Positions 10,970 through 47,089 of a stretch of 64,000 nucleotides of DNA are shown piece by piece. Location: the sequence record OR525701.1; one strand, given 5' to 3'. Source of the DNA: Escherichia phage vB-Eco-KMB38. The position numbers and the translations under genes were made by a program. The notes beneath the pieces were generated by a model. The model was given only the letters and a program-made list of their open reading frames with translations, searched no databases and was not told the DNA's origin. The first letter of the stretch is position 1, and every line of letters starts with the position of its first letter.

Positions 10970-11277
10970 CGTAAAGTCCCTGCAATTGGAATACTAACAA
11001 TACGGCCTGTGTCCAGGATTCGTTGATACAATCTTTGCGTCTCCGCATCTAGTTTAACGTGTTTCATTTCAAGCTTATTAAACCAGAACTTACGCGGAGT
11101 TTCGACCATTCTTAGAACTCCCATTTTTAAATCTGTTTTATACTGTGTTTTCAAAGTATCGAAAACTTTATCTGCAATATCCTTTCTAAAAAATACTGCA
11201 GGACGATGCTCATCAAGTGGGACCGGGACAGTAAATCCTTCCATATCTCGATAAACTATTGCATATACATAAACCAT
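10966..11277 (-). CDS. hypothetical protein (dda.1 position)
   Basis: 103 aa ORF with ATGA overlap to dda. Confidence 0.55.
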   Translation of the reverse strand: MVYVYAIVYRDMEGFTVPVPLDEHRPAVFFRKDIADKVFDTLKTQYKTDLKMGVLRMVETPRKFWFNKLEMKHVKLDAETQRLYQRILDTGRIVSIPIAGTLR

Positions 11278-11279
11278 AA

Positions 11280-12026
11280 TTAACCTTTAATCAGTTGGAA
11301 TAATGATACGTTAAGTGGTAAGCCACGTTTCAATTTTAATTTACCAATGAAACCAATCTTTTCAAAACGTTGCAGACCTTGGATAACTTTATCATATGTA
11401 TCGAAAAGCGATTCAGCGTCAGTTAATTTAGTTTTAGTTTTCCAGTCAGAGCCTTTAAGAAGAACGTTGAGTTTAGTAAGTTCATGGCCTTCTGCTTGAT
11501 GTGAGCCATTAATGCGTGCTTTTAAAGCAACAATTCTAAGTTTAGATTCGTTAGATAAAGGTTGATTTTTCATCATGTTCGCCATATGCTTAACACGATT
11601 TTCACGTTTTGCTCGGATTTTTAAAATAGTACCGTAAACCTTTTTAATTTGGGCCCATTTCTTCTCGTCGAGATTAAGTTTCTCTACTTTACGGGCAGAA
11701 GGATTAGCGATACGTCTTGCAATGGCATCACGTTTCTCAATAAGTTCTTCTAATGTTAAATCAGAACGAGCCGTGTTATATTTTTTCTTAACCGGGATAA
11801 CATTACCTTTAATGTAGCCTATATCATTATTAAAACGTTCTAAGGATAATTTCTCACCTTCAACAGAGTTATTAAAAGATTCACCTGAGTAAGCGCAGAC
11901 CTTTTGATCAAGAATGTTTTTAAGGTAATTAAAGTCCAAGTTAAAATCCTTAGAGCGTCTCTTCGCAGAAGCTCTGGTGTGGTCAAGACGACGATTGATT
12001 TTGTTAATTTTATTATTTGATAACAT
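11280..12026 (-). CDS. srd: Srd-like protein (putative anti-sigma/sigma-related factor)
   Basis: 248 aa basic protein at the T4 srd position between dda and modA; name by synteny only. Confidence 0.5.
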   Translation of the reverse strand: MLSNNKINKINRRLDHTRASAKRRSKDFNLDFNYLKNILDQKVCAYSGESFNNSVEGEKLSLERFNNDIGYIKGNVIPVKKKYNTARSDLTLEELIEKRDAIARRIANPSARKVEKLNLDEKKWAQIKKVYGTILKIRAKRENRVKHMANMMKNQPLSNESKLRIVALKARINGSHQAEGHELTKLNVLLKGSDWKTKTKLTDAESLFDTYDKVIQGLQRFEKIGFIGKLKLKRGLPLNVSLFQLIKG

Positions 12027-22633: not shown

Positions 22634-23777
22634 GGTCGTTTTCTATATCTGCTGCAGACGGAGCATCAGAAGTTTTAACCGGAACTTTAGTTGTTGCTTT
22701 GCAATTAATAAGGTCGTTAACCGCGTCATCAACTTCTTTAATAGAAGAGATAGCACCTAGTTTATATTTAGTTTCAATTGCATCTCGGAAAGGTTTGTGT
22801 TTAAACAACGGTCCCCAGAATTCTACACAATCAGTAGCTTTAGCACGCCATGATTTTTCTTCACGAATCATTTCACCTGTTTCTTCGTCAAGGAATTCAC
22901 GAGCATACCAACCAGCTTTAGGCTTAACCACAAAACCGATTTCAGTTGCCATTTCTAACAAGCCACTGAATGGGTCAATACCACCGTCGAAATTAACCGT
23001 GATCGGGAAAGTAGATTTCTCTTTAACTGTACGAGATTTTTCTGCTTTCAACGTGAAGTCATAACCAGTCAATTCTGTACCTTCTTTAACCTGACGTTTA
23101 GAGATAAAAAATACCGTGTTGGCGGAATAAAGAATACCTGTACCACCACCCATAATCTCTTTAGGATACAATCCGCCAATTTCCATTGCAGTATGGTTAA
23201 TTGCAACACATGGAATATCTTTAATAGTCAGATAAGGAGTCACAATGCGGAACAGAGATTTAAGTGCCTTAGCACGAGACATATCACCTACAACTTTCTC
23301 GTTCAATGCATCTTCAGTTTCTTTCTTAGATGCAGTATTACCGATTGAATCGATAAAGATAATAACTTTATCACCCCGTTCAATCGCGTCAAGCTGATTA
23401 GTCATATCAACTTTAAGTTGTTCGACAGATTGAATCGGAGTATGAACTACACGGTCTAAATCAACACCCATTGAACGAAAATAAGATTCTGAAGCACCGA
23501 ATTCTGAGTCATAAAACAAACAGATTGCATCTTTATATTTCTTCATATATGCTGCAACCATGGTCAGCCCAAACAATGTTTTAAAGTGTTTAGAAGGAGC
23601 AGCAAAAATAGTTAAGCCTGATTGCAACCCGGCATTCAGTGCACCACCTAGTGCAATATTCAACATCGGAATACGAGTAGGGACTTCATCACGATTATTA
23701 AACAGCTTAGACTTAGTCAAGTCTGCAGTCATTTTAGAAGTAGAAGCTTTAATCAGACGAGATTTTAAATCAGACAT
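22605..23777 (-). CDS. uvsX: UvsX recombinase (RecA-like)
   Basis: 390 aa; RecA-fold P-loop FAAPSKHFKT; T4 UvsX is 391 aa. Confidence 0.9.
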   Translation of the reverse strand: MSDLKSRLIKASTSKMTADLTKSKLFNNRDEVPTRIPMLNIALGGALNAGLQSGLTIFAAPSKHFKTLFGLTMVAAYMKKYKDAICLFYDSEFGASESYFRSMGVDLDRVVHTPIQSVEQLKVDMTNQLDAIERGDKVIIFIDSIGNTASKKETEDALNEKVVGDMSRAKALKSLFRIVTPYLTIKDIPCVAINHTAMEIGGLYPKEIMGGGTGILYSANTVFFISKRQVKEGTELTGYDFTLKAEKSRTVKEKSTFPITVNFDGGIDPFSGLLEMATEIGFVVKPKAGWYAREFLDEETGEMIREEKSWRAKATDCVEFWGPLFKHKPFRDAIETKYKLGAISSIKEVDDAVNDLINCKATTKVPVKTSDAPSAADIENDLDEMEDFDE

Positions 23778-23875
23778 TGTATTTTTCCATAGGCATCATT
23801 ATATTTTACTCATGTTTAAAAGATAAGATGATTATATACTAAGGGTTATACAGCATTTAAAACTTTAAATGGCTC

Positions 23876-24424
23876 TTAACGAGCCCATTTGATAATTTCT
23901 GTAATCAAATAATTACGTTCGCTTGCATTAAATCCTATAACTTTGTTAGCACCATCATGATTAAGTAATTGATACGTTTGGATTTTGTTATGAATTGCAA
24001 ACTCTTCAAAATGTGAAATGACTGTATTAAAACCGAATGAGGACAAAGTAATAAGGTCGTCTTCAAAACTTTCAGTCATTTCGTTACGTGTTAAAATAAT
24101 TGTGAACACATCATGGTTTTGGCAAAGACGAACATAATCCTGTTCATAAACGTCAAGAACCGAGTCCGCATCTTGTCGAATACGTCCATAAACCCAGTTA
24201 CTAATATATCCACGGTCTAACAGATAAATCTTAGTAGGGTCTAAATAATTCAACATCGTTTCGAAGCAGCCAACTTCATTTCGAGACTTAACATCGAAAC
24301 GCCCATCAACTGTTCGTTTAGGGAAATCAATCTTTACATATCTTTCACTAATTTCCATTATGTCATTAATGAAAGTTGTTTTACCAGCATTATCTGGGCC
24401 ATCTACTAAAATAATTTTAGCCAT
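23876..24424 (-). CDS. P-loop kinase-like protein (Walker A GPDNAGKTT), substrate unknown
   Basis: 182 aa; occupies the T4 beta-glucosyltransferase locus between uvsX and 42. Confidence 0.6.
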   Translation of the reverse strand: MAKIILVDGPDNAGKTTFINDIMEISERYVKIDFPKRTVDGRFDVKSRNEVGCFETMLNYLDPTKIYLLDRGYISNWVYGRIRQDADSVLDVYEQDYVRLCQNHDVFTIILTRNEMTESFEDDLITLSSFGFNTVISHFEEFAIHNKIQTYQLLNHDGANKVIGFNASERNYLITEIIKWAR

Positions 24425-24425
24425 T

Positions 24426-25325
24426 TTATTCCTCGATTACGACATCTTCATATTTAGGTATATTATACGGTGAAGAAATTAAAGCATTAAAGTAGATGAA
24501 CTCACCAAGACCTGGATGAAATACTTCTTCAGGATTTTCGAAATATTGAATCTTCGGACGTCCTTTAAGAATTTGATAGTACTCAGTTTTAGTTGGTTTA
24601 AAAATTCGAATCAGCGCTTCTTCAGGATACTTATTTCTGTCGAAGCTATTATTTGGATCGGTTATATAAAGCGGTTGACCTAATTGAATTGCACATTCAA
24701 CCACTTGTTCAAAACGATAGCATGGGTCACTAATTCGAAATGGATGAAAAATACCATCTAGATGAATAGGAGCCAAATCACCCACAAGACGCTGCATGAT
24801 GGAAGGACGTATAACTTTCTGAGTTACGATAATCTTATTACCATCTGCACCTGCGTTAACCAGCACTTCTTTTTGACGTTCATTCAACACAGTAGTTTGA
24901 AGTGAACGATTAACTGACAACATATCGGTTTTTAAGAATTCGTCAATATAAAAACGTGGTTTATTAGGGTCTGCCGTGATATTGAAATTGAATTCTACAT
25001 CAAAAGCGCCGTCATATCCAGTGATATCTGTTATTAGAAAATCACAATCATAATAAGCAATTAATGAATCAACCACAAATTCATTTTCAGACCAGAAATA
25101 TTTACGAGTGTTATACGCGTTATCTTTATACCATAATGGAACAAACTTAAATTCCGGGAAAAGACGTTCACATTCTTTAATATCAGATGCATTACGTGGA
25201 TATGTAATCACATCACCTGGATTAGCACGGTGCAAATGAAGTTGGAAGTTGCCATCCTTAAGGATAGCATACTGTCCAGTTTCATAAGACCGCATACTCA
25301 AGATAGGTACGCGGAAAATAGCCAT
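24426..25325 (-). CDS. hypothetical protein, candidate DNA sugar-transferase
   Basis: 299 aa ORF tightly packed between the P-loop gene and gene 42; no recognisable motif. Confidence 0.6.
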   Translation of the reverse strand: MAIFRVPILSMRSYETGQYAILKDGNFQLHLHRANPGDVITYPRNASDIKECERLFPEFKFVPLWYKDNAYNTRKYFWSENEFVVDSLIAYYDCDFLITDITGYDGAFDVEFNFNITADPNKPRFYIDEFLKTDMLSVNRSLQTTVLNERQKEVLVNAGADGNKIIVTQKVIRPSIMQRLVGDLAPIHLDGIFHPFRISDPCYRFEQVVECAIQLGQPLYITDPNNSFDRNKYPEEALIRIFKPTKTEYYQILKGRPKIQYFENPEEVFHPGLGEFIYFNALISSPYNIPKYEDVVIEE

Positions 25326-26041
25326 TAGTCAAGGAATCCTTTAACATAATCAAAATCACGTTCAAACACATGGGCACTTACCATGGTATGAGTATAATCA
25401 CCAACTTCTACACCGCATTCGTTAGCGATATAATGAAGTAATTTTCCTTGGAGATAAAAATCCAATTGCATAACAACAGCACAGTTCTGAGAACGCATAT
25501 GACAGTGGGTATAAAGCTTACCATCACGAATATAATAGGTCACTGAGTCAGTACATGGATATTCAAGCGTTTCGTCTGAATCAAGCAAAGCCTGATCAGA
25601 ACTTTCTAGAATTTGGAACACAACTCTTCGAGAGTTAGGTTTCTCTTTAAGTTCTTTTAGAAGAGCTGGTAATTGGGCCGCAATGCGAGGACCATAGAAA
25701 GTGTTGAAGTTCGCAGGCAAAGCATCTGATTTTGGTTTAGAAATGAATTTAGCGACATTAGGATATGCCTTAAACGCTTCTTCTGCATCAGTACCACCAG
25801 AAATCATAAACTTCCAGAAGTCTTCGGCATATTCATAAGAGATGCGGTTAATACGTGGGTCAGTCATTTTGAATGATGACGGAGTGTCAACAACTACTGT
25901 CATAGACCCAATTTCATTACAACGACCAATACGAGAATCAGTTACGAATTCCGGGTTTTCTAAAATTTCACGATTGACTGCTTTAAATGCGGTTTGAAAA
26001 TCTGCGGCTTTGATATATTTCATTGTGTTATGTTTTCCCAT
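25325..26041 (-). CDS. 42: dCMP hydroxymethylase (thymidylate synthase family)
   Basis: 238 aa; PNSRRVVFQI, YPCTDSVTYYIRDGK and HMRSQN segments parallel T4 gp42 as I recall it. Confidence 0.8.
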   Translation of the reverse strand: MGKHNTMKYIKAADFQTAFKAVNREILENPEFVTDSRIGRCNEIGSMTVVVDTPSSFKMTDPRINRISYEYAEDFWKFMISGGTDAEEAFKAYPNVAKFISKPKSDALPANFNTFYGPRIAAQLPALLKELKEKPNSRRVVFQILESSDQALLDSDETLEYPCTDSVTYYIRDGKLYTHCHMRSQNCAVVMQLDFYLQGKLLHYIANECGVEVGDYTHTMVSAHVFERDFDYVKGFLD

Positions 26042-26319
26042 GTTTACCTCAATACAATTTATTATATACTCAATTCATAAAGCTTATTTGAATTTCTTGG
26101 CAATGTTGATATAACGTAAAGCTTCACCATCAATACTTCCAAGAACACTATGAAGAAATGCATCAGCTTAGTATTCCAATTGAACAGGTTCTTTAATCAC
26201 TTTAGCCGCTTTGGTTTCAAACAGGCCCATCAGGGCCTTTTTAAGAATTTGTTCGTTAGTGTTCAGTTTTATAGTCAAAATCTTTTCATTAAGTTGGTGG
26301 TTAAAAGTTTTTCTAGAAA

Positions 26320-27480
26320 TCATTCCGGGTACCTCAAAGCGTCATCAGAGTTAGTTATATCAATAATAGATATAGAGTTTTCTGCTAACCCATTTTTAGA
26401 TAACTGACGTTTATAATATCTTTCACAATATGTACACGTCGTCCCGCAGATTTCATTAGCACAATCGAAATCTGGATGTCTGAACCACCTTTTTTCTAAA
26501 AAGCCATCTAACAAAGAGGTTTCAATATTTACTGTATGTGAAAACTCGGTCTCATTTTCAAGAGTGAAAATAGTCTCTAAAGGCTTCCACAGTTCTAACA
26601 AATTACCTTCAAACTTTTCAGAAGCGTATGCTTCAAGAACTTTCAAAATGTAGTCTGTGCTACCTGTACGTCCTGAAACTTTGAATTGAGTGATACCAAT
26701 ATCATTATAAAGTTTCAAATCTTGAGGACGAACAAAACGAGTTCTCAACCAGTTAAATGGGTCTGTATCACGAGCTTTAATACAGTGCTGCATAGGATAT
26801 CCGTTTAAGGATTTAGCATCATCAGCTGTAACATCAGTACTATGGAAAATATAGCAAGAGTCACGATAGCTACAATGTGTTGTATACCCTTTACCAGCAT
26901 TAGAACAGAACTCATTTACAAGAACTTCAAATATTATATTGTTCTTATTGCAAAACTCTGCTGCACGCTTCAGGAAAGAAACTGAACGGTTCTTATGAAT
27001 TCCACAGCAGACCTTTTTGATATTATACTGGTCATGCAAGTATTTGATTTGAGTTACAGCATCGACATGTAGAATTGTTGAAACTTCAATCTCAATGTCT
27101 TTATTGACTTCACGAACAATTTCCATAACAACAGGGTTAGCGATAGTAATACGCCATACGCCTATTGACCAAAGATACTGAACATAATCCTGAATAGCTT
27201 TCTTCTTCCACTCAACTAGTTCTCTTTTTGAACCAGGATTTATCGTGTTGAGTGTATAGTTAAAGCAAATACCTAATTCGTTACAACGTTTAACGTAATC
27301 TTCTAACATCTTTTTGTCAACGTCAGGAAGCCTAAAATCAGGTCTGGCTGCTACAAAAGCCATTTCTCTTGTAGAGCCGTATACTTCATTTATCAAGCTA
27401 TTAGGATAAGTTTTATTGAGCTCTACGATTTTATCAAGAAGAGCTAAATCAAAATTCGTTCCGATTTTAAAAGTATTCAT
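26320..27480 (-). CDS. Cys-rich enzyme of unknown function (tentative peptidase-U32-like/metal-binding)
   Basis: 386 aa; C-terminal CANEICGTTCTYC cluster and internal CSNAGKGYTTHCSYRDSC; part of island between 42 and 43. Confidence 0.6.
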   Translation of the reverse strand: MNTFKIGTNFDLALLDKIVELNKTYPNSLINEVYGSTREMAFVAARPDFRLPDVDKKMLEDYVKRCNELGICFNYTLNTINPGSKRELVEWKKKAIQDYVQYLWSIGVWRITIANPVVMEIVREVNKDIEIEVSTILHVDAVTQIKYLHDQYNIKKVCCGIHKNRSVSFLKRAAEFCNKNNIIFEVLVNEFCSNAGKGYTTHCSYRDSCYIFHSTDVTADDAKSLNGYPMQHCIKARDTDPFNWLRTRFVRPQDLKLYNDIGITQFKVSGRTGSTDYILKVLEAYASEKFEGNLLELWKPLETIFTLENETEFSHTVNIETSLLDGFLEKRWFRHPDFDCANEICGTTCTYCERYYKRQLSKNGLAENSISIIDITNSDDALRYPE

Positions 27481-27539
27481 TTTTTTGCATCTCGCGTTAA
27501 TTGATGCGATGGTTTTTTTTGCAGGTCTTACTTAAATTA

Positions 27540-27941
27540 TTATAGATTCGGTTTATACGATTTAAATGTTTCGAATTCGCCTTTATTCATAAGAGCTTTG
27601 AATTCGTCAGGACGCATAGCTTTGTCGTCGATAATCCAATCATATACTGGTTTATGTGTTAGCAAATTATGGTACTTCAAGCCAATGTTTGCCAAGTTCT
27701 GAATCAGACTTGGGAGAATGTCAATTGCTATACGACCAGGACCTACTGACTTCATACCGCGAGCAGTGTAAAGCGTTATGGTATGCCCTGCATCATACAG
27801 GGCATTAATGGCAGACACCATTTCGACGTCTGGTTTGAAGTTCACGTAATCACGATTGTTATTCCACTCTGTTATACAATCATCGACATCAAAACAAAGA
27901 TTAAGCATGTTTTCTACACGGCGCATTAGATTCGTTCCCAT
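27540..27941 (-). CDS. HAD-superfamily phosphatase-like protein
   Basis: 133 aa; N-terminal FDVDDCIT resembles HAD motif I; small cap-less HAD architecture. Confidence 0.6.
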   Translation of the reverse strand: MGTNLMRRVENMLNLCFDVDDCITEWNNNRDYVNFKPDVEMVSAINALYDAGHTITLYTARGMKSVGPGRIAIDILPSLIQNLANIGLKYHNLLTHKPVYDWIIDDKAMRPDEFKALMNKGEFETFKSYKPNL

Positions 27942-29611
27942 TGATGAGTGATATCGCCACCGATTGGACGATAGGAAACACCAGTTTCTTTATCAGTTAG
28001 TACCCATTTACCAGGATTTTTTGTAATCAGAGTAGCCGTTACAGGTTCTGCTACGTCATAACTAATAGAGCCGTCTTGAAGTACACGGCCCATATTACGT
28101 AATTGCTTAGTCAGAAGTTCCATACCTTTATAATATGCGGCTACCGCTTTAAGTGGATTATTCTTGAAATAACCACCTAATGCAATCCAGATAATTGCCA
28201 CTGCCAAATGATGATACTCGTTAAACGAACTCATCTTTCCATATTTGTAAACTAATGGATTGATGTTAATAGTCACATTACAAGTTGTTTCATCAATAGT
28301 AAACTGCCCCCAGGTCGGATTAGCGTTGAATTCATCATATCCTGAAACAGCGTAAAGCACTTTAGCTTCATCGTACAATTTTGGCCCGTAAATCTTGGTT
28401 TCACCAAAATATCCACGAGGGTCGATAAACTTGACTTCGCCGTTATCAGTAATCATAGTATTACTGAAGTTCGGGTCACCATGAATAACAGAGTACTGTC
28501 CCTGAGAACGGTTATGATAACGAATAAGGTGTTCTAAAGCTTGTTTCAGCATTGGCTTCAGACGTCCAATCTTAGTGTAGTTCACATGTGTGATTTTACC
28601 AAATGAATCAATCAATGGTTGAATGCTTTCACAACGATCAATAACTTTCGTATAGAATTCTTTAGTGAAATCACGACGAACAGTTTCAGGACTTACAAAA
28701 TAAGTGTCTGTGCTGAATTTCAGTGCATCTAAAATTGCATCAACAATTTGTGGACGAGCAAGACTTGATTTGGATTTAATATATTCAAATGCTGGCTTAC
28801 CTTTAATGCGTTCCATTTCAAAGTTATTTTCATTAACAGAAACTAACTGAGGAACTGAATCTGATTTCACTTTAAGATACCACGAAATCTCATCTTTCTG
28901 AAGAGCTCGTCCCTGTTCGGTTAATGCGAATTTAGTTACAGTTTCTTCACCAATTTCAACTGCATTAAAACTACGATTAAGTTCACGAACTTCATGAGCT
29001 TTTTCAAGTTTAGGCATATCACCTAAATCAATTAGATTCATAAGCTCTGATTTATTGAATGCGCTGCCGTAAAGGAATTCTACGAAATCACGTCCTTTGC
29101 AGTATTCATGAATTTCCTCATCAGTAGAACCCATATAGAATTCCCAGTCTTTGAACTGATAAATTCCTACAACATTACCACCTGTTGAACCTACGTTAGT
29201 GATATTTTCACCGTCGAAATTATATCGACATTCGTCACCCTTAACATAGATTGCGTTAACATTCCAAGACCATGAACCAAAATCAGGAATAATATCACAC
29301 CAGTTAACAATTACATTATGGCCGTCTAAATCTTTGTGTAATTTAGCAAGAGCATAAGCAGAACCATACGCTTCATCAACTGTACGAATAGTCACATTGA
29401 ACCCTTCTTGCTCACAATAAGCTCGAACGGTTTCAGCAAATTTTGAATGAACTACTACAATAATTTCATCTGCGCCAAGGTCAGAATAAATTGTATACAA
29501 ATTGCTCAGAATAGTGTCTTGTTTATAGTTAACAAGCACCTTAGGAATATGATGCGTTATTGGATACAAACGAGTTGCCAGTCCAGCACCAAGAATAACA
29601 GCTTTTTTCAT
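27926..29611 (-). CDS. bifunctional sugar-1-phosphate nucleotidyltransferase / sugar kinase (APH/choline-kinase-like)
   Basis: 561 aa; N-terminal AVILGAGLATRLYP nucleotidyltransferase motif; C-terminal IHGDPNFSN Brenner-type kinase motif. Confidence 0.7.
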   Translation of the reverse strand: MKKAVILGAGLATRLYPITHHIPKVLVNYKQDTILSNLYTIYSDLGADEIIVVVHSKFAETVRAYCEQEGFNVTIRTVDEAYGSAYALAKLHKDLDGHNVIVNWCDIIPDFGSWSWNVNAIYVKGDECRYNFDGENITNVGSTGGNVVGIYQFKDWEFYMGSTDEEIHEYCKGRDFVEFLYGSAFNKSELMNLIDLGDMPKLEKAHEVRELNRSFNAVEIGEETVTKFALTEQGRALQKDEISWYLKVKSDSVPQLVSVNENNFEMERIKGKPAFEYIKSKSSLARPQIVDAILDALKFSTDTYFVSPETVRRDFTKEFYTKVIDRCESIQPLIDSFGKITHVNYTKIGRLKPMLKQALEHLIRYHNRSQGQYSVIHGDPNFSNTMITDNGEVKFIDPRGYFGETKIYGPKLYDEAKVLYAVSGYDEFNANPTWGQFTIDETTCNVTININPLVYKYGKMSSFNEYHHLAVAIIWIALGGYFKNNPLKAVAAYYKGMELLTKQLRNMGRVLQDGSISYDVAEPVTATLITKNPGKWVLTDKETGVSYRPIGGDITHQWERI

Positions 29612-29644
29612 GTTGAAGTCCTCATTGGTAAGTAGGAGTATTGT

Positions 29645-29788
29645 ACACTATTCTAGTTAAAGCATTCATACTTTGCTTGTAGTCCAATCATAATCCATCC
29701 AATTACAAGTGTTGGAATCATTACCGGAGCCGTTAAGCTCCAGTAGATAGTCATGACAAGCATCAATAGTAAAAGTCCTATTGTTATT
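29645..29788 (-). CDS. small hydrophobic peptide (47 aa)
   Basis: hand-translated ORF MKAITIGLLLLMLVMTIYW... between SIS gene and kinase gene; below ORF-track cutoff. Confidence 0.3.
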
Positions 29789-29792
29789 GCTT

Positions 29793-30428
29793 TCATTGCT
29801 CGCCTCGTAACATGGCACCTAGTGCACCGCCAGGGTGGAACTTAAGGAAATCATTAGAGGTAAATCCACGTTCAGACGAAAGGTTGATAGCAAACGTATC
29901 GATAAGCGCTAACAACAATGTAGTGGACATAGTCGGAGCCAGAGAATTCTCATCAACCTCTACCGCGATGCCGGTGCAGAACGTATAATCAAAAAGAGCT
30001 TCGTATTCTTGTGGAATGTCAGGGTTACAATGTAACAGAATCTGTTTAACCTGAGGACGAATCATACGAAGATGTTTAGCAACACCTATCATTTCTTCAG
30101 TCTTACCAGAACGACTGATGTGGACTAATACATCATTAGGTGCAATAAATCCTGCGTCACCATGAGAATAATGCCCGGTATTCAAATACATGCTAGGAAT
30201 ACCTAGTGAAGCAAAAGTCTCGGAAGCTTTAGTTGCGATATTAGCATTCTTACCAACACCTGTAATAATTACCCGGCTTTCATAATTACTAAGTCCAGGG
30301 CGTCGAAGAGTTTCTAGAATAGCATTATAACGAGCAGGGTTTTGACTAATTACTTTAGCCATAGTGGCAAGAGATGAAGCTTGTTTTACGATTGCGTCAA
30401 TAGCGATAGTAATAGGAGTAGTTTTCAT
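29793..30428 (-). CDS. SIS-domain sugar-phosphate isomerase, arabinose-5-phosphate isomerase (KdsD/GutQ/KpsF)-like, no CBS domains
   Basis: 211 aa; VIITGVGKNANIATK..HGD..ISRSG and LAPTMSTT...FHPGGALG motifs parallel KdsD SIS domain. Confidence 0.75.
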   Translation of the reverse strand: MKTTPITIAIDAIVKQASSLATMAKVISQNPARYNAILETLRRPGLSNYESRVIITGVGKNANIATKASETFASLGIPSMYLNTGHYSHGDAGFIAPNDVLVHISRSGKTEEMIGVAKHLRMIRPQVKQILLHCNPDIPQEYEALFDYTFCTGIAVEVDENSLAPTMSTTLLLALIDTFAINLSSERGFTSNDFLKFHPGGALGAMLRGEQ

Positions 30429-30468
30429 ATTTCTCTCATTTAATTAGTTGGCCGTCCTTGGCATTATA

Positions 30469-33180
30469 TCAAAAATCAAACATATCGAACAGAGATGCTT
30501 TCTTCTCGTAATCGAGTTTCGCTGCTGATGTGAATCCTTCAAGTGGTTTAATAAATGTCTTCTCAAGGAGAACAGTGTAGTCCATCCAATGAAGTACATC
30601 GTCTTTAATTAAATCTGTGATTTCAGTACCAGAAGGCCATGCGATACATTTATCACCGAATGGGTTTCCTTCACGTAAAGGCAGAACATATACTTTTTCA
30701 CCTTCTACAACTTGTGGTGCATCAATATTACCTTTGATAGCTCGGTTATATGTCAGAATTCCACGAATATGGAACGGACATTTAGGACCAGGGAATCCAC
30801 CGACATCATATTTAGCAATGTTATTCGCAGAAGATACCGACGCGATGCTAATATAATTCAATTGACGGAATTCTTTTTCAAACTCTTTAAAATATTCTTG
30901 TAATGATTCTTCACCTTCTTGAAGCATACGACGAATACATTCTTTAAGAGCTTTCTGTACTGCTTTAGGGGTCGAAGATTTCTGAGTCTCTAGACCCATG
31001 ATTTTGAGTTTAGGCTCAGCGTAACGAGTGCCTTCCATATCCCACACGTTTAATGCATAACGTTTCTTACCAGTCCAGAATCCACCAATACCTTTAGAAC
31101 CGAGCGGAGGCCCAGCAATAGCTTCTCGGTCCATGAACATCAAATGTTGCTTATTATTCATGTATTCGCACATTTCACGGAAACCTCTATCAATAGCAGG
31201 TTCCATACGTTCACGAGCGAACTTATCTAAGAAGTCTACCCAATGGTTGGTATCACGGAATTTAGATTCACCAACCTTATCGATAATTTTATCAGCAGAT
31301 ACGTAAATAGAGTCTGTATCACCATAAAGAACGAAAGCTTCACCTTCTGTACCACAAACTTCATTCAGATATTCATTAACTTTACGTTCAATCCACTGTA
31401 AAGCCATTTGCCCGAATGTTGTGATTGCAGTAGCATTACGCAAATCATAATAACGGAACCAAACGTTTCCAAGTGCACCATAAAGTGAGTTGATAAGCAA
31501 TTTACGGTTAATTTGGGCAGTCATACCTGCAACTTCAGTACGTTGAGCTCTAAACAACATTTCATTAAGAGATTTAGCAGACAACTTTTTAATCTTTTCT
31601 TTAATCTCATCACTGAAGTCGAAACGATAATCAACATCTAATGGTTCGTCAACAGAAAGATTAGGATTATGCAATGCCTCTTTAATTATTTCACCATTAC
31701 GTTGAGCTGCAAGCATGTAACCTTTATGTTCTTTACGTTGATTAAAGACCTTAGTGATTTCAGTTGGAACTACACCATCACGGTCTTTATAATACATCAT
31801 GCCGTTAGGAGAGCAACTGTACACATCTGAAGGACGTTCAGCGATTGCGTTAATATAATCATGCAGTGGAGCTACTTTAAACGTTCCTGCTATTGTTTCC
31901 GGGCTAATATTCACTTGGCGAATAATACTTGGATACAGAGATGTAAGGTCGAAACTCATTACATATTTGTATCGATTTGGAATAGGTTCCTTAACAAAAG
32001 CGCCAGGATAAGGTTGAACCGGGTGAGAACGACCTTGTGGAATCACCTTGTTTTGTTCTTTAAGGCTATTAAAAATAATAGCATCCCAAGTTTTAATTGG
32101 ACTGAACACAGATTGAATCTGAATTTTAGCATAATAACCCATGTCCAAACTCAAGTTGATGAACTGACGCTTAGCATCAATTTGCAATACACGATATACG
32201 TCGATAATGTTATAAGAAATATATCGTTGGTGATTGCTTTCACGAAGTTTAGAAATAGGACCGTCGTATTTCAGTTTACCAACGTTCAATTCAAATTCTG
32301 AAATGTAATCCAGAGAATACGACGGTTGGTTCGTGAAAGAGAACTTTTTGTAAAGGTCAATGTAATCAAGAACAGAGATACCGAACAATGTAATGATTTC
32401 ACGAGAACCATACATGTTTTCGATAACTTTAACACGAGTTTTACGATGTGGTGATAAACGTTTCGCAGTAGATTCGCCAAAAATATTCTTGATTCGGTTA
32501 TACACATATGGAATATCAAATGACTCAACGTTCCATCCAGTCAAAATGACAGGAGTTTTCTGTTGCCAGAAGTTGAGATATTCCATCAACAATTCTTTTT
32601 CGTTATCGAACGGCATATAAATGATTTTATCGATAATTTCAGATGGAACTTCATCACCGCCTTGTTCTTGAAGCTTAGCAGCGATTTCAATAGACCATTC
32701 TTCTACATTACCATATGGAGAATTCAATAGATCAAATACGTAGAACCTGTCGTCAATTGAGTCATAATGGGTGATAGCATCAATCGGATGTTTTGCTTGT
32801 GACGGCTCAGGGAACCCATCCGGAGATGTTACTTCGATGTCGAAGTTAGCCACACGAATTTTTGTATGGTCGTATTTGATTTCATAGTTATAAGTGTCAG
32901 ACAAATACGCCAATTTGAAATCGTCCATGCCAAGTGCTTCAAGTCCGATATCTTCCATGCGTTTAATCCATTGGGAGGCATCACGCATATTAGCGAACAA
33001 CTTACGAGTACACGGCTTACCGTAGATATCGAAATATTTCGTAGCCTGACTTTCTGGACAATGAGCAAACAGTGATGGTTTATATTCTACTTCACGAGTA
33101 CGTTCACGGCCATTAGAATCGATGTAACGTTCAAAAATTGAATCACCAATCTGTTCAACCGTTAAGTAAAATTCTTTCAT
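30469..33180 (-). CDS. 43: DNA polymerase (family B, with 3'-5' exonuclease)
   Basis: 903 aa; exo motif FDIEVTS, pol motifs DLTSLYPSII and YGDTDS; sequence matches my recollection of RB69 gp43. Confidence 0.95.
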   Translation of the reverse strand: MKEFYLTVEQIGDSIFERYIDSNGRERTREVEYKPSLFAHCPESQATKYFDIYGKPCTRKLFANMRDASQWIKRMEDIGLEALGMDDFKLAYLSDTYNYEIKYDHTKIRVANFDIEVTSPDGFPEPSQAKHPIDAITHYDSIDDRFYVFDLLNSPYGNVEEWSIEIAAKLQEQGGDEVPSEIIDKIIYMPFDNEKELLMEYLNFWQQKTPVILTGWNVESFDIPYVYNRIKNIFGESTAKRLSPHRKTRVKVIENMYGSREIITLFGISVLDYIDLYKKFSFTNQPSYSLDYISEFELNVGKLKYDGPISKLRESNHQRYISYNIIDVYRVLQIDAKRQFINLSLDMGYYAKIQIQSVFSPIKTWDAIIFNSLKEQNKVIPQGRSHPVQPYPGAFVKEPIPNRYKYVMSFDLTSLYPSIIRQVNISPETIAGTFKVAPLHDYINAIAERPSDVYSCSPNGMMYYKDRDGVVPTEITKVFNQRKEHKGYMLAAQRNGEIIKEALHNPNLSVDEPLDVDYRFDFSDEIKEKIKKLSAKSLNEMLFRAQRTEVAGMTAQINRKLLINSLYGALGNVWFRYYDLRNATAITTFGQMALQWIERKVNEYLNEVCGTEGEAFVLYGDTDSIYVSADKIIDKVGESKFRDTNHWVDFLDKFARERMEPAIDRGFREMCEYMNNKQHLMFMDREAIAGPPLGSKGIGGFWTGKKRYALNVWDMEGTRYAEPKLKIMGLETQKSSTPKAVQKALKECIRRMLQEGEESLQEYFKEFEKEFRQLNYISIASVSSANNIAKYDVGGFPGPKCPFHIRGILTYNRAIKGNIDAPQVVEGEKVYVLPLREGNPFGDKCIAWPSGTEITDLIKDDVLHWMDYTVLLEKTFIKPLEGFTSAAKLDYEKKASLFDMFDF

Positions 33181-44804: not shown

Positions 44805-45275
44805 TTAATCATGTTTCCACACCCCATCGGTATTTGACCAAAGACGCTGATTATCTGATCCTCGCCACAGCTTTTTAGTCGGAAGATTTTTCTCATACTT
44901 CCCATCAATAATAACATCAACATATTTAAGCATTTCTAGTTGTTTAATATCTTCAAACTTATATCCTGTCCACAACCAAATGCTTTTATTGGGATAAAGA
45001 TTTTTTACTGTTTGAGCAATGCGATGAATAACATCTCGGTTATCAGGATAGAGAGGGTCTCCTCCGGTTATAGTTAATCCTTCTATATAATCATTATTCA
45101 AACATTCAATCAATTGTTCTAGTGTTTCACCAGTGAATGGAATACCATTTCTAGCATTCCATGTTGATTTATTATAACACCCTTCGCATTTATGCAAACA
45201 ACCCGTAACGAAAAGAACGACCCTGCAACCAGGGCCATTCACAAAATCGCAAGGATAAAATCTATCATAATTCAT
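44805..45275 (-). CDS. nrdG: anaerobic ribonucleotide reductase activating protein (radical SAM)
   Basis: 156 aa; CLHKCEGC (Cx3Cx2C); same length as T4 NrdG. Confidence 0.85.
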   Translation of the reverse strand: MNYDRFYPCDFVNGPGCRVVLFVTGCLHKCEGCYNKSTWNARNGIPFTGETLEQLIECLNNDYIEGLTITGGDPLYPDNRDVIHRIAQTVKNLYPNKSIWLWTGYKFEDIKQLEMLKYVDVIIDGKYEKNLPTKKLWRGSDNQRLWSNTDGVWKHD

Positions 45276-47089
45276 TGGTGTTTAACCCTATGCATGATTT
45301 CTTTATTTTTGCCGAGATTAAATCCGCGTTCGTTCGGATTTCCCAAATAACCACAAGTTCTTCTTATTGTGTTCATCTTTTTAGGGTCAGTTTCTCCGCA
45401 AACTGAACAAACAAATCCGTTTTCAGTAGGAGTCATTTCATGGGTACTTCCACATGTAAAACATTTATCTACTGGCATATTAACACCAAAATAATCTAAA
45501 TGTTGTGCGGCATAATCCCATACAGCCTCAAGACCTTTTAAGTTATTTTTCATATCAGGAAGTTCAACATAAGAAATGTGACCACCGGTCGCAATGAAAT
45601 GATATGGCGCTTCACGAGAAATCTTTTCAAACGGAGTAATATTTTCTTCTACTGAAACATGGAAACTATTAGTGTACCAGCCTTTATCAGTAACATCTTT
45701 TACACTTCCATATTTTTCTGTATCAAGTTTACAGAAACGATAACACAAGTTTTCAGCAGGAGTAGAATACAAGCTAAAAGCAAAACCGGTTCTTTCAGTC
45801 CACTGTTTAAGATGAGCATTCATTTTAGTTAAAATTTCTTGTCCAATATCACGACCGACAAGAATATTCAATTCGTGAATACCAATGTATCCTAGGGACA
45901 CTGAACTTCTACCGTTTTTAAATAACTCAATTATATCGTCATCAGGTTTAAGACGAACCCCGAATGCACCTTCTTGGTAAAGAATAGGAGCAACAGTCGC
46001 TTTAACTCCTTTTAAGGAACTAATTCTACACATCAAAGCTTCAAAACACAAATCCATTCGTTCATTGAACAATTCGGCAAATTTCTGTTCATTGAATTGT
46101 GTTCCAATATAAGAATCTAACGCAATGCGAGGAAGATTCAGTGTTACAACACCAAGATTATTGCGTCCATCAAGAATTTCATTACCAGTCGAATCTTTCC
46201 ATACACTCAAGAAACTACGGCAACCCATTGGAGAAACTGGAACTGAAGAACCAGTAATAGCTTTATTATTCTTAACCGAAATAATGTCAGGATACATTCT
46301 TTTGCTTGCACATTCTAACGCAAGTTGTTTAATATCATAGTTCGGATCATCTTTATAAAGATTAACACCTTCTTCAACGAACATAACAAGCTTAGGGAAA
46401 ATAGGAGTTATTCCATCACGACCAAGGCCTTTAATGCGGTTTTTAAGAATTGCTTTCTGAATCATTCGTTCAGTCCAGTCGGTTCCTGTACCAAATGTAA
46501 TTGTTACAAAAGGAGTCTGTCCGTTTGAACTAAAGAGAGTATTTACTTCATATTCATAAGCTTGGAATGCATCGTATACGTCTTTTTCTGTTTTAGATTG
46601 AGCATAATTCAACGCATCAGCGATTTGCCATTTTTCTGCATCTTCAACATGTTTAGCGTATGTGCGTTTAACATAAGGAGAAAGAACTTTATCGACATTC
46701 GCAAATGTAGTTCCGCCATATTGGTGTGAAGCAACTTGTGCGGTAATTTGTGCCATAATTGCAGTAGCAACGCCAATAGATTTAGGCGTTTCAATTTGAG
46801 CATTGCCTAATTTAAATCCATTCTCAAGCATCCCCTTTAAATCGACTAAACAGCAATTAGTAAATGGAAGAGCAGGAGAATAATCAATATCATGCATGTG
46901 AATGATTCCGCTTTCATGCGCATTCATAATAAAAGACGGGACCATATTTTTGGCAATGTGCTTAGACACAATACCAGCCATAAGGTCCCGTTGAGTTGGA
47001 AAAACACGAGAATCTTTATTAGCATTCTCGTTTAAAAGGTCTTTATTAGTTTTATGAATTAATCCTTCAATTTCTTTTTCAATTTTCAT
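45272..47089 (-). CDS. nrdD: anaerobic ribonucleoside-triphosphate reductase
   Basis: 605 aa; C-terminal Zn site CFTCG...CSVCG and glycyl-radical motif RTCGYLG; uninterrupted. Confidence 0.9.
   Translation of the reverse strand: MKIEKEIEGLIHKTNKDLLNENANKDSRVFPTQRDLMAGIVSKHIAKNMVPSFIMNAHESGIIHMHDIDYSPALPFTNCCLVDLKGMLENGFKLGNAQIETPKSIGVATAIMAQITAQVASHQYGGTTFANVDKVLSPYVKRTYAKHVEDAEKWQIADALNYAQSKTEKDVYDAFQAYEYEVNTLFSSNGQTPFVTITFGTGTDWTERMIQKAILKNRIKGLGRDGITPIFPKLVMFVEEGVNLYKDDPNYDIKQLALECASKRMYPDIISVKNNKAITGSSVPVSPMGCRSFLSVWKDSTGNEILDGRNNLGVVTLNLPRIALDSYIGTQFNEQKFAELFNERMDLCFEALMCRISSLKGVKATVAPILYQEGAFGVRLKPDDDIIELFKNGRSSVSLGYIGIHELNILVGRDIGQEILTKMNAHLKQWTERTGFAFSLYSTPAENLCYRFCKLDTEKYGSVKDVTDKGWYTNSFHVSVEENITPFEKISREAPYHFIATGGHISYVELPDMKNNLKGLEAVWDYAAQHLDYFGVNMPVDKCFTCGSTHEMTPTENGFVCSVCGETDPKKMNTIRRTCGYLGNPNERGFNLGKNKEIMHRVKHQ

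Follow-up and report, generated by a model that had tools for sequence, protein, structure and literature searches.

A U32-family protein in the DNA-modification cluster of an RB69-like phage as a candidate oxygen-independent, prephenate-dependent hydroxylase

The U32 gene, its cluster and its family

We analysed a stretch of 64,000 nucleotides (hereafter the window) from Escherichia phage vB-Eco-KMB38 (sequence record OR525701.1), an RB69-like T4-type coliphage of the genus Mosigvirus, and concentrated on a gene for a U32-family protein at positions 26320–27480 of the minus strand. The gene is an ATG-to-stop open reading frame (ORF) of 386 amino acids (aa) with exactly these borders, as given in a preliminary description that had been made from the letters and the ORF list. 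A 6.7-kb region is 98.5% identical to that of Shigella phage JK45, and the protein shares 99.5–100% identity with its counterparts in RB69, JK45 and about 150 further records; the gene is, therefore, the ortholog of RB69 gp50 (RB69p050). Full-length homologs are found in 221 phage records, and a search of 1.84 billion cluster representatives (clustered at 50% identity) returned 114 homolog clusters at E≤1e-30 and 1185 at E≤1e-3. Comparison with phage Bas46 revealed nine synonymous and one non-synonymous changes, a ratio of non-synonymous to synonymous rates (dN/dS) of about 0.03, which places the gene under strong purifying selection. Given the many full-length homologs and this low ratio, the frame is not a chance ORF.

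The gene belongs to a cluster encoded entirely on the minus strand, which we describe from uvsX toward DNA polymerase. The first two genes encode a thymidylate-kinase-like nucleotide kinase (23876–24424; PHROG 761), ortholog of RB69 gp45, and a DNA glycosyltransferase, arabinosyltransferase 1 (24426–25325; PHROG 3891), ortholog of RB69 gp46:47 (PMC13326640 Table 1). They are followed by the ortholog of RB69 gp48, a thymidylate-synthase homolog (25325–26041; Pfam Thymidylat_synt) that is a synthase of 5-hydroxydeoxycytidine monophosphate (5-hydroxy-dCMP; PMC13326640), and by a truncated, 51-aa ortholog of RB69 ORF049c (26168–26323), recognized by comparison with Bas46. On the other side of the U32 gene lie a HAD phosphatase of uridine diphosphate (UDP)-arabinofuranose synthesis (AfhF-like, RB69 gp51; 27540–27941; PHROG 1238), a bifunctional nucleotidyltransferase/kinase (AfhE-like, RB69 gp52:53; 27926–29611; Pfam NTP_transferase and kinase-type matches) and an arabinose-5-phosphate isomerase with a SIS domain (RB69 gp55; 29793–30428; Pfam SIS, PHROG 5670) (PMC13326640). 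The U32 gene has the sugar-activation genes on one side and that of the 5-hydroxy-dCMP synthase on the other. As the preliminary description had stated for the 'sugar island', it is embedded in this cluster for DNA modification and sugar synthesis. Across T4-like genera the U32 protein is the best conserved of the cluster (82–89% identity, against 73–83% for the synthase homolog, 51–72% for the glycosyltransferase and 38–73% for the kinase).

The AfhE-like and phosphatase genes overlap by 16 nucleotides (27926–27941), the U32 gene and ORF049c by 4, and the glycosyltransferase and synthase-homolog genes by one base; the cluster is tightly packed, and its translation is probably coupled. Scanning 23700–30600 for promoters was uninformative (21 promoter-like sites, 26 expected) and revealed no convincing minus-strand terminator in the same interval.

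RB69 DNA bears mono- and di-arabinosylated 5-hydroxycytosine, and its relatives carry the arabinosylated base as well (PMC13326640, Lee et al.). RB69 gp48 makes 5-hydroxy-dCMP and incorporates 18O from O2; it binds flavin mononucleotide (FMN), but loosely, and requires a reductant (PMC13326640). The route from ribulose-5-phosphate to UDP-arabinofuranose is accounted for by three enzymes, namely the isomerase, the AfhE-like enzyme and the AfhF-like phosphatase (PMC13326640). Elsewhere in the window, at 45272–47089 (minus strand), lies a gene for the class III anaerobic ribonucleotide reductase NrdD (Pfam NRDD 571 bits, Gly_radical 90 bits); this reductase shows the phage to be equipped for anaerobic replication.

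Neither the gene nor its U32 annotation is new. Databases label it 'peptidase', 'collagenase-like protease' or, in the BASEL collection, 'putative enzyme involved in UDP-arabinose biosynthesis'. PMC13326640 lists gp50 in a table only, as 'sugar or heterocycle reductase', and not in the running text; its discussion raises RNA pyrimidine-hydroxylation pathways without tying them to gp50. A literature search whose coverage excludes He et al. 2026 (Nat Chem Biol) and Mahler et al. 2025 (Cell Host Microbe), possibly relevant either way, found no paper that connects the gene with O2-independent hydroxylation, prephenate or a mutase neighbour.

Membership of the U32 family, tentative in the preliminary description, is supported by a match to Pfam PF01136 (Peptidase_U32; E 7.3e-11, 42.2 bits against a gathering cut-off of 22.4, residues 94–286), a domain also precomputed on nearly all homologs, and by a match to PHROG 5757 ('peptidase') that spans the protein from end to end. 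In addition, an AlphaFold2 model built from 109 homologs (predicted local distance difference test, pLDDT, 93.6; predicted template modelling score, pTM, 0.91) has the U32 protein 5D88 as its best fold match and, like it, the TIM-barrel fold of the family. This structure, Mk0906 of Methanopyrus kandleri (14% identity, 247 residues), lacks the Cys-rich C-terminal extension, a clade-specific region of about 100 residues in the phage protein. Searching solved structures in the Protein Data Bank (PDB) with the single protein sequence gave no match, and a profile search of the PDB gave one spurious match only, to BIM1 (E 0.014).

Characterized U32 proteins are Fe-S, prephenate-dependent, O2-independent hydroxylases (PMC5727448, PMC6599085, PMC6747719, PMC10990095). 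RlhA makes 5-hydroxycytidine in 23S rRNA and needs Fe-S biogenesis and prephenate (PMC5727448). TrhP makes 5-hydroxyuridine in tRNA in a prephenate-dependent, O2-independent reaction and is redundant with the O2-dependent TrhO (PMC6599085). UbiU and UbiV bind one [4Fe-4S] cluster each (PMC6747719), and the oxygen donor for the steps that depend on them is prephenate (PMC10990095). Documented U32 chemistry thus includes the exact reaction needed here, the hydroxylation of cytosine at C5 without O2.

The best NCBIfam match of the phage protein is the UbiU equivalog model NF047963, which covers residues 57–158 only and scores 18.5 bits against a cut-off of 440, a score that speaks against orthology to UbiU. 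Neither RlhA's accessory domain (DUF3656) nor that of TrhP (a C-terminal extension) was found, Pfam giving PF01136 alone. As these profiles suggest no orthology to UbiU and no RlhA- or TrhP-type accessory domain, and as the cysteine spacing is non-canonical, we assign the protein to a distinct U32 subfamily by sequence.

The preliminary description had noted the richness in cysteine, with one cluster at the C-terminus and another inside the protein, and had proposed a metal- or Fe-S-dependent enzyme, an idea that it would have dropped if the cysteines were not conserved among orthologs. The protein contains 13 cysteines. Four of them form the C-terminal motif C340-x4-C345-x3-C349-x2-C352 ('FDCANEICGTTCTYCERYY'; codons 340–352 at 26425–26463, minus strand), and another four the internal cluster C192-x10-C203-x5-C209-x23-C233 (codons 192–233 at 26782–26907, minus strand), with E185 just upstream. 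All eight are invariant in 121 homologs, down to 46% identity, and in 39 out of 39 close-clade U32 proteins, one of them only 40% identical, from loci on contigs of metagenomes and IMG/VR (L-numbered below; counts refer to 40 non-T4 and 15 T4-like loci). Among 122 distant representatives (27–50% identity; 123 rows with the query), C192, C203 and C233 are kept in 122–123 rows and the C-terminal four in 115–116, while position 209 is Cys in 76 and His in 46 representatives. C158 and C177 are conserved within the closer clade only.

We aligned the phage protein (MAFFT) with UbiU, UbiV, TrhP and RlhA from the E. coli MG1655 genome. E185, C192 and C209 share columns with E162, C170 and C177 of TrhP and with E161, C169 and C176 of RlhA, residues that have been shown to be essential (PMC6599085). 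E185 is at least 90% conserved, and C192 and C209 are invariant, in the 121-homolog alignment; K267, G270 and R271 fit the K-x-E-G-R motif of the family. In addition, C233 ('GYPMQHC') resembles and aligns near UbiU C232 ('GYPTLC'), a proven [4Fe-4S] ligand (PMC6747719). The internal tetrad is thus the predicted [4Fe-4S] site of the U32 domain, and the C-terminal tetrad a predicted second metal site, either an auxiliary electron-transfer [4Fe-4S] cluster or a Zn site. The two invariant tetrads and the residues shared with TrhP, RlhA and UbiU argue for a metal or Fe-S enzyme, as first proposed. A radical S-adenosylmethionine (SAM) enzyme was also considered, since C345-x3-C349-x-Y-C352 fits CX3CXΦC; we rejected it because there is no Radical_SAM match at E≤0.1, and because the motif, at the very C-terminal end, is not part of the barrel and is accompanied by a fourth invariant cysteine, C340.

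Chorismate mutase linkage and U32 loci of other phages

In Enterobacter phage Entb_45, a 79-aa ORF that overlaps the U32 stop codon encodes an AroQ chorismate mutase (CM_2, 40.9 bits against a cut-off of 27). Chorismate mutase is the enzyme that makes prephenate. Searching 50,697 phage records with tblastn, we found mutases of this type in 56, nearly all from T4-like phages with U32, and in every record inspected the mutase gene, coding for 79–124 aa, adjoins the U32 gene. The phage mutase retains the catalytic residues R11, R28, K39, S84 and Q88 of the E. coli enzyme. The phages that carry it infect Klebsiella, Serratia, Yersinia, Enterobacter, Edwardsiella, Erwinia, Proteus, Pectobacterium, Providencia, Morganella, Kosakonia, E. 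coli (phage EcS1) and Shewanella. Thanatos-1, a Shewanella phage, has its cluster in a rearranged order, in which the U32 and mutase genes are nonetheless still adjacent, with a 4-nucleotide overlap. A mutase domain lies within about 2 kb of U32 in 13 of the 15 T4-like IMG/VR loci.

In Acinetobacter phage Maestro and coliphage Bp7 (Dhakavirus) the cluster is the same except that the synthase homolog comes directly after the phosphatase gene; the U32–mutase pair, therefore, behaves as an insertion/deletion module. We found the synthase homolog in 373 records, among them 57 of Acinetobacter phages and about 20 of Rhizobium phages. By organism tallies, the 221 U32-bearing records hold no Acinetobacter entry, and all listed hosts are Enterobacterales or Shewanella. 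Enterobacterales and Shewanella are facultative anaerobes, and Acinetobacter is a strict aerobe. The U32-less Dhakavirus Bp7 shows, however, that possession of U32 is not a strict rule among phages of facultative anaerobes.

The closest non-T4 relatives of the U32 protein (46–58% identity) are likewise viral. The relatives in the 114 clusters come from small, large and jumbo phages, apparently mostly of habitats that we infer to be anaerobic. In small phages the gene order is kinase, glycosyltransferase, U32 and DNA polymerase III alpha, and nine such loci show the kinase–glycosyltransferase–U32 series with no sugar-activation genes in view. Large phages have a glycosyltransferase (sometimes fused to a kinase), a SIS isomerase, an AfhE-like gene, in some cases a fusion of 3-deoxy-D-arabino-heptulosonate-7-phosphate (DAHP) synthase and chorismate mutase, a KdsC-like phosphatase and U32. 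In jumbo phages (219–294 kb) U32 is followed by chorismate mutase or the DAHP synthase/mutase fusion, a glycosyltransferase, an AfhE-like gene and a phosphatase, and in megaphage-type contigs it follows a dCMP deaminase. U32 genes with 50–56% identity adjoin glycosyltransferase homologs with E values of 1e-8 to 1e-16 against the window gene, and many non-T4 loci also have homologs of the SIS isomerase (2e-20) and AfhE (1e-48). Kinase homologs stand beside non-T4 U32 genes at E of about 1e-5 in two loci and at weaker values (0.02–0.07) in two more. Further conserved neighbours are dCMP deaminase, a dUTPase/dCTP-deaminase-like gene and DNA polymerase. The thymidylate-synthase homolog, in contrast to these, was detectable in only one of the 40 non-T4 loci (L036), within the 7–10 kb covered on either side of U32.

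Genes of prephenate synthesis recur in these unrelated loci. A chorismate mutase domain lies within about 2 kb of U32 in 11 of the 40 non-T4 loci, and DAHP synthase and/or mutase within two genes of it in 13, as a DAHP-synthase/mutase fusion, a stand-alone mutase or DAHP synthase alone. In L050, for instance, DAHP_synth_1 scores 84.8 bits and CM_2 86.1 bits, with similar matches in L046, L060, L057 and L008. The SIS isomerase and KdsC-like phosphatase in its vicinity make it tempting to read the DAHP_synth_1 neighbour as a synthase of 3-deoxy-D-manno-octulosonate (KDO)-8-phosphate. We rejected this candidate, as the NCBIfam scores are 124–237 bits for DAHP synthase and 30–63 for KDO8P synthase, and as most copies have a fused chorismate mutase domain. 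A mutase that serves carboxymethylation of the carboxy-SAM (Cx-SAM)/CmoA type (PMC12783734) was considered too; no methyltransferase-sized conserved neighbour family emerged in the loci, although no search was aimed at CmoA or CmoX. In L008 (9145–9888) and L034, DAHP synthase without a mutase domain lies directly downstream of U32; these phage DAHP synthases are auxiliary genes of the shikimate pathway, for which we found no earlier explanation.

Several loci have features of their own. L043 (2594–4408, plus strand), as well as L053 and L065, encodes a 605-aa glycosyltransferase homolog fused to a C-terminal thymidylate-kinase-like P-loop domain, a 'Rosetta-stone' fusion that, by its domain matches, ties the functions of glycosyltransferase and kinase together. 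In L004 (12160–14360) and L005 (7355–9555), U32 adjoins NT5C, a deoxynucleoside kinase and a nucleoside 2-deoxyribosyltransferase; the contig has a dockerin/GH43 neighbour, and its source is probably an anaerobic Firmicute. It also carries a second U32 paralog (22% identity) that is preceded by a radical-SAM/SPASM protein and, in L004, retains the C-terminal Cys tetrad. A radical-SAM gene likewise precedes the glycosyltransferase–U32 pair of L018, and such a neighbour might be a maturase or a partner. In L017 (8098–9000, 12073–13179), the genes after U32 are those of a TAGT-like (TET-associated) glycosyltransferase and of a dUTPase/dCTP-deaminase-like protein, with UDP-galactopyranose mutase (GLF) 4 kb downstream. 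This gene set recalls Rhizobium phage RL38J1, in which 5-hydroxycytosine reportedly bears a galactofuranose-type decoration. Finally, in the megaphage-type contigs (466 kb) of L003 (7447–9086) and L006 (7504–9083), U32 comes directly after the dCMP deaminase gene and is followed by a conserved gene for a 248–254-aa protein without a family match; the DNA polymerase III alpha of these contigs is split or fused, with a UDG domain. The substrate of megaphage U32 might be a uracil rather than a cytosine nucleotide.

A candidate oxygen-independent hydroxylase and the alternatives

We consider it likely, at a probability of roughly 60%, that the window protein is an anaerobic, prephenate-dependent pyrimidine-C5 hydroxylase that serves DNA modification. 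This is suggested by family membership, by the conserved catalytic and metal-binding residues, by the recurrent linkage to prephenate genes, by the pattern of presence and absence and by DNA-glycosylation neighbours in loci where the O2-dependent hydroxylase is missing. In the proposed mechanism, a [4Fe-4S] cluster would be held in the TIM-barrel U32 domain by C192, C203, C209 and C233, and C340, C345, C349 and C352 would bind a further cluster or metal, through which electrons pass to an acceptor. The enzyme would hydroxylate C5 of a cytosine deoxynucleotide, most likely converting dCMP to 5-hydroxy-dCMP, with the oxygen atom coming from prephenate and not from O2. Fe-S binding, the use of prephenate, the substrate and the electron acceptor are all inferred. 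We favour dCMP because a nucleotide kinase travels with the gene; dCTP or DNA is also possible. The product would then join the gp48 route of phosphorylation, incorporation by the phage polymerase and arabinosylation on DNA. In sister genera the chorismate mutase would supply the prephenate, while Mosigvirus, having lost the mutase, would rely on PheA and TyrA of the host.

According to this proposal the phage would have two interchangeable hydroxylases, U32 for anoxic hosts and the synthase homolog gp48 for oxic ones, and in many phages of anaerobes U32 would be the sole hydroxylase. Such a pair would parallel TrhO and TrhP for tRNA, UbiI/H/F and UbiU/V for ubiquinone, and the phage's own aerobic and anaerobic ribonucleotide reductases. 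The known 5-hydroxy-dCMP synthases (RB69 gp48, DLP3 gp80 and the enzyme of phage HY126) belong to the same kind of cluster and make the product proposed for U32, which feeds the same kinase, polymerase and arabinosyltransferase steps. They differ from U32 in having a thymidylate synthase fold, FMN and O2 as the oxygen source (18O2), and their role is experimentally proven, whereas that of U32 is inferred. TrhP (YegQ), which shares with the phage protein the family and the pyrimidine-C5 chemistry, is one of two redundant routes, the prephenate-dependent and O2-independent one. The O2-dependent partner there is the rhodanese-family TrhO, and in the phage it would be the flavin-binding thymidylate-synthase homolog; the substrate is tRNA for TrhP and is proposed to be a DNA precursor for the phage protein.

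The chemistry proposed here, prephenate- and Fe-S-dependent hydroxylation of cytosine C5, is that of RlhA (YdcP), the 5-hydroxycytidine synthase of E. coli 23S rRNA C2501. RlhA and the phage protein have in common the U32 domain, the Glu and the first two Cys, as well as extra C-terminal cysteines, which are essential in RlhA. Their sequence similarity is confined to the Pfam-level domain match, however, and RlhA is a 653-aa protein with DUF3656 that acts on a ribosome assembly intermediate, whereas the phage protein has 386 aa, no DUF3656 and presumably a deoxynucleotide as substrate. UbiU and UbiV resemble the phage protein in the U32 domain, in a [4Fe-4S] cluster on four cysteines and in prephenate as the oxygen donor, the last two being proven for UbiU/V and predicted for the phage. 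There are two clusters per functional unit in UbiU/V and two predicted in the phage protein. UbiU/V, however, is a heterodimer that acts on a prenylated phenol together with the lipid-binding UbiT, while in the phage a single chain carries both tetrads.

Several points weigh against an oxygen-independent hydroxylase. The canonical cysteine spacing of the family, CX6CX15CX3/4C (CX6CX15CX3C in RlhA, CX6CX16CX38C in UbiU), is not kept in the phage C-x10-C-x5-C-x23-C; C203 belongs to a clade-specific insertion (about 15 residues), and no CX3C pair like that of TrhP (C193/C197) and RlhA is present. The match to UbiU is partial and far below its cut-off. This Mosigvirus has no chorismate mutase, and the Dhakavirus coliphages, with the same facultative-anaerobe host, carry the cluster without U32, so that U32 is not obligatory for such hosts. 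The scarcity of the synthase homolog in non-T4 loci applies to the flanks of U32 rather than to whole genomes, and the choice among dCMP, dCTP and DNA is a guess from neighbouring kinase genes. In addition, in vitro reconstitution of any U32 enzyme has not yet been achieved (PMC10990095).

T4-like phages encode tRNAs, and the protein might instead hydroxylate RNA as TrhP or RlhA does, acting on phage or host tRNA (5-hydroxyuridine 34) or on rRNA and thereby adjusting translation in the infected cell; the prephenate link would suit such a role equally well. Indeed, the sole characterized U32 pyrimidine hydroxylases act on RNA (PMC5727448, PMC6599085). We nevertheless regard an RNA substrate as improbable: the extra domains of RlhA and TrhP were not seen beside PF01136, the gene comes and goes as a module inside a DNA-modification cluster, and its conserved neighbours in unrelated phages are genes of deoxynucleotide metabolism and DNA glycosylation.

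It is also unlikely that the protein is a redox helper of gp48, such as an Fe-S flavin reductase that regenerates reduced FMN and is no hydroxylase itself. Two Cys tetrads would suit an electron-transfer protein, and the loosely bound FMN of gp48 and its need for a reductant (PMC13326640) would give such a helper a task. However, the synthase homolog does not need gp50 for its activity in E. coli (PMC13326640), the Acinetobacter phages do without U32, 39 of the 40 non-T4 U32 loci have no thymidylate-synthase homolog nearby, and a helper of this kind offers no reason for the linkage to chorismate mutase.

Little probability attaches to a step of the sugar branch, be it the 'sugar or heterocycle reductase' of PMC13326640 Table 1 or another step toward nucleoside diphosphate (NDP)-arabinose, as the BASEL label has it. 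The gene does come immediately after the sugar-activation genes, with the HAD phosphatase on one side and the remaining cluster genes on the other, and many non-T4 U32 genes adjoin the SIS isomerase, AfhE and the KdsC-like phosphatase. The isomerase, AfhE and AfhF, however, already cover the whole route to UDP-arabinofuranose, and Acinetobacter phages DLP3 and Maestro make arabinosylated 5-hydroxycytosine without U32 (PMC13326640). The nine small-phage loci mentioned above lack visible sugar-activation genes, and a sugar role leaves the recurrent chorismate mutase and DAHP synthase neighbours unexplained. Moreover, we know of no U32 protein that is a sugar reductase.

We are also aware of no catalytic mechanism for proteolysis in the U32 family. 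A genuine peptidase or collagenase, the reading of the database names 'peptidase' and 'collagenase-like protease' and of old collagenolytic reports for PrtC and HP0169 (cited in PMC5727448), can practically be discounted, as recent genetics assigns hydroxylation to U32 throughout (PMC5727448, PMC6599085, PMC6747719, PMC10990095), the protein shows no signal of secretion or virion association, and the genomic context is nucleotide metabolism.

If the protein is an oxygen-independent hydroxylase, it would be a U32 hydroxylase with a new substrate class in a viral setting. The one route by which 5-hydroxycytosine is known to arise in phage DNA requires O2, although the hosts of these phages are gut enterobacteria and the phages encode an anaerobic reductase; a hydroxylase that works without O2 would account for the synthesis of fully substituted DNA in the gut. 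It would also explain the shikimate-pathway genes of phages, which would rewire this pathway of the host at a cost of one prephenate per modified base. We estimate that a 168-kb genome of 37% G+C contains about 6×10^4 cytosines, so that with a burst of 100 each cell would use up millions of prephenate molecules. We rate at slightly less than an even chance the broader proposal that this is the first U32 enzyme to act on DNA precursors and that its relatives mark a large unseen class of glycosylated 5-hydroxypyrimidine DNA in phages of anaerobes. U32 together with a glycosyltransferase and a kinase, often with mutase or DAHP synthase, could then serve as a genomic marker of hypermodified DNA in uncultured phages of anaerobes. 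The gene is relevant to candidates for phage therapy, as many Mosigvirus, Klebsiella and Serratia phages carry it. Furthermore, the chemistry of prephenate as an oxygen donor would become directly testable on an enzyme that is soluble, consists of one chain, takes a small nucleotide as its substrate and can be followed by mass spectrometry.

The small ORF downstream of the U32 gene

An 85-aa ORF on the plus strand (26150–26407), antisense to the junction of U32 and ORF049c, is of low complexity, hydrophobic and without homolog support, and is probably spurious. ORF049c itself has 79 aa at full length in Bas46 and is intact in IMG/VR locus L020. In the window, a TAC-to-TAA nonsense change (stop at 26168–26170) trims it to 51 aa, and the 28 codons removed are still in frame to about 26084 on the minus strand. 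Its dN/dS against Bas46 is 0.24, far above that of the neighbouring genes, and for this reason ORF049c looks dispensable or decaying in this strain.

In other genera the chorismate mutase gene occupies the same intergenic slot as ORF049c. We considered whether ORF049c is itself an AroQ chorismate mutase, possibly a degenerate one, and rejected this, because the intact Bas46 ortholog has no Pfam CM_2 or NCBIfam mutase match and because phages of the PM2, TG1 and L035 types carry both genes side by side. In L029 and L031 (EcS1-type and Serratia CBH8-type phages; about 11158–11502), the chorismate mutase is a 114-aa protein whose N-terminus ('MRRINH.MNE') resembles that of ORF049c, which suggests a fusion or a remnant of these two small genes.

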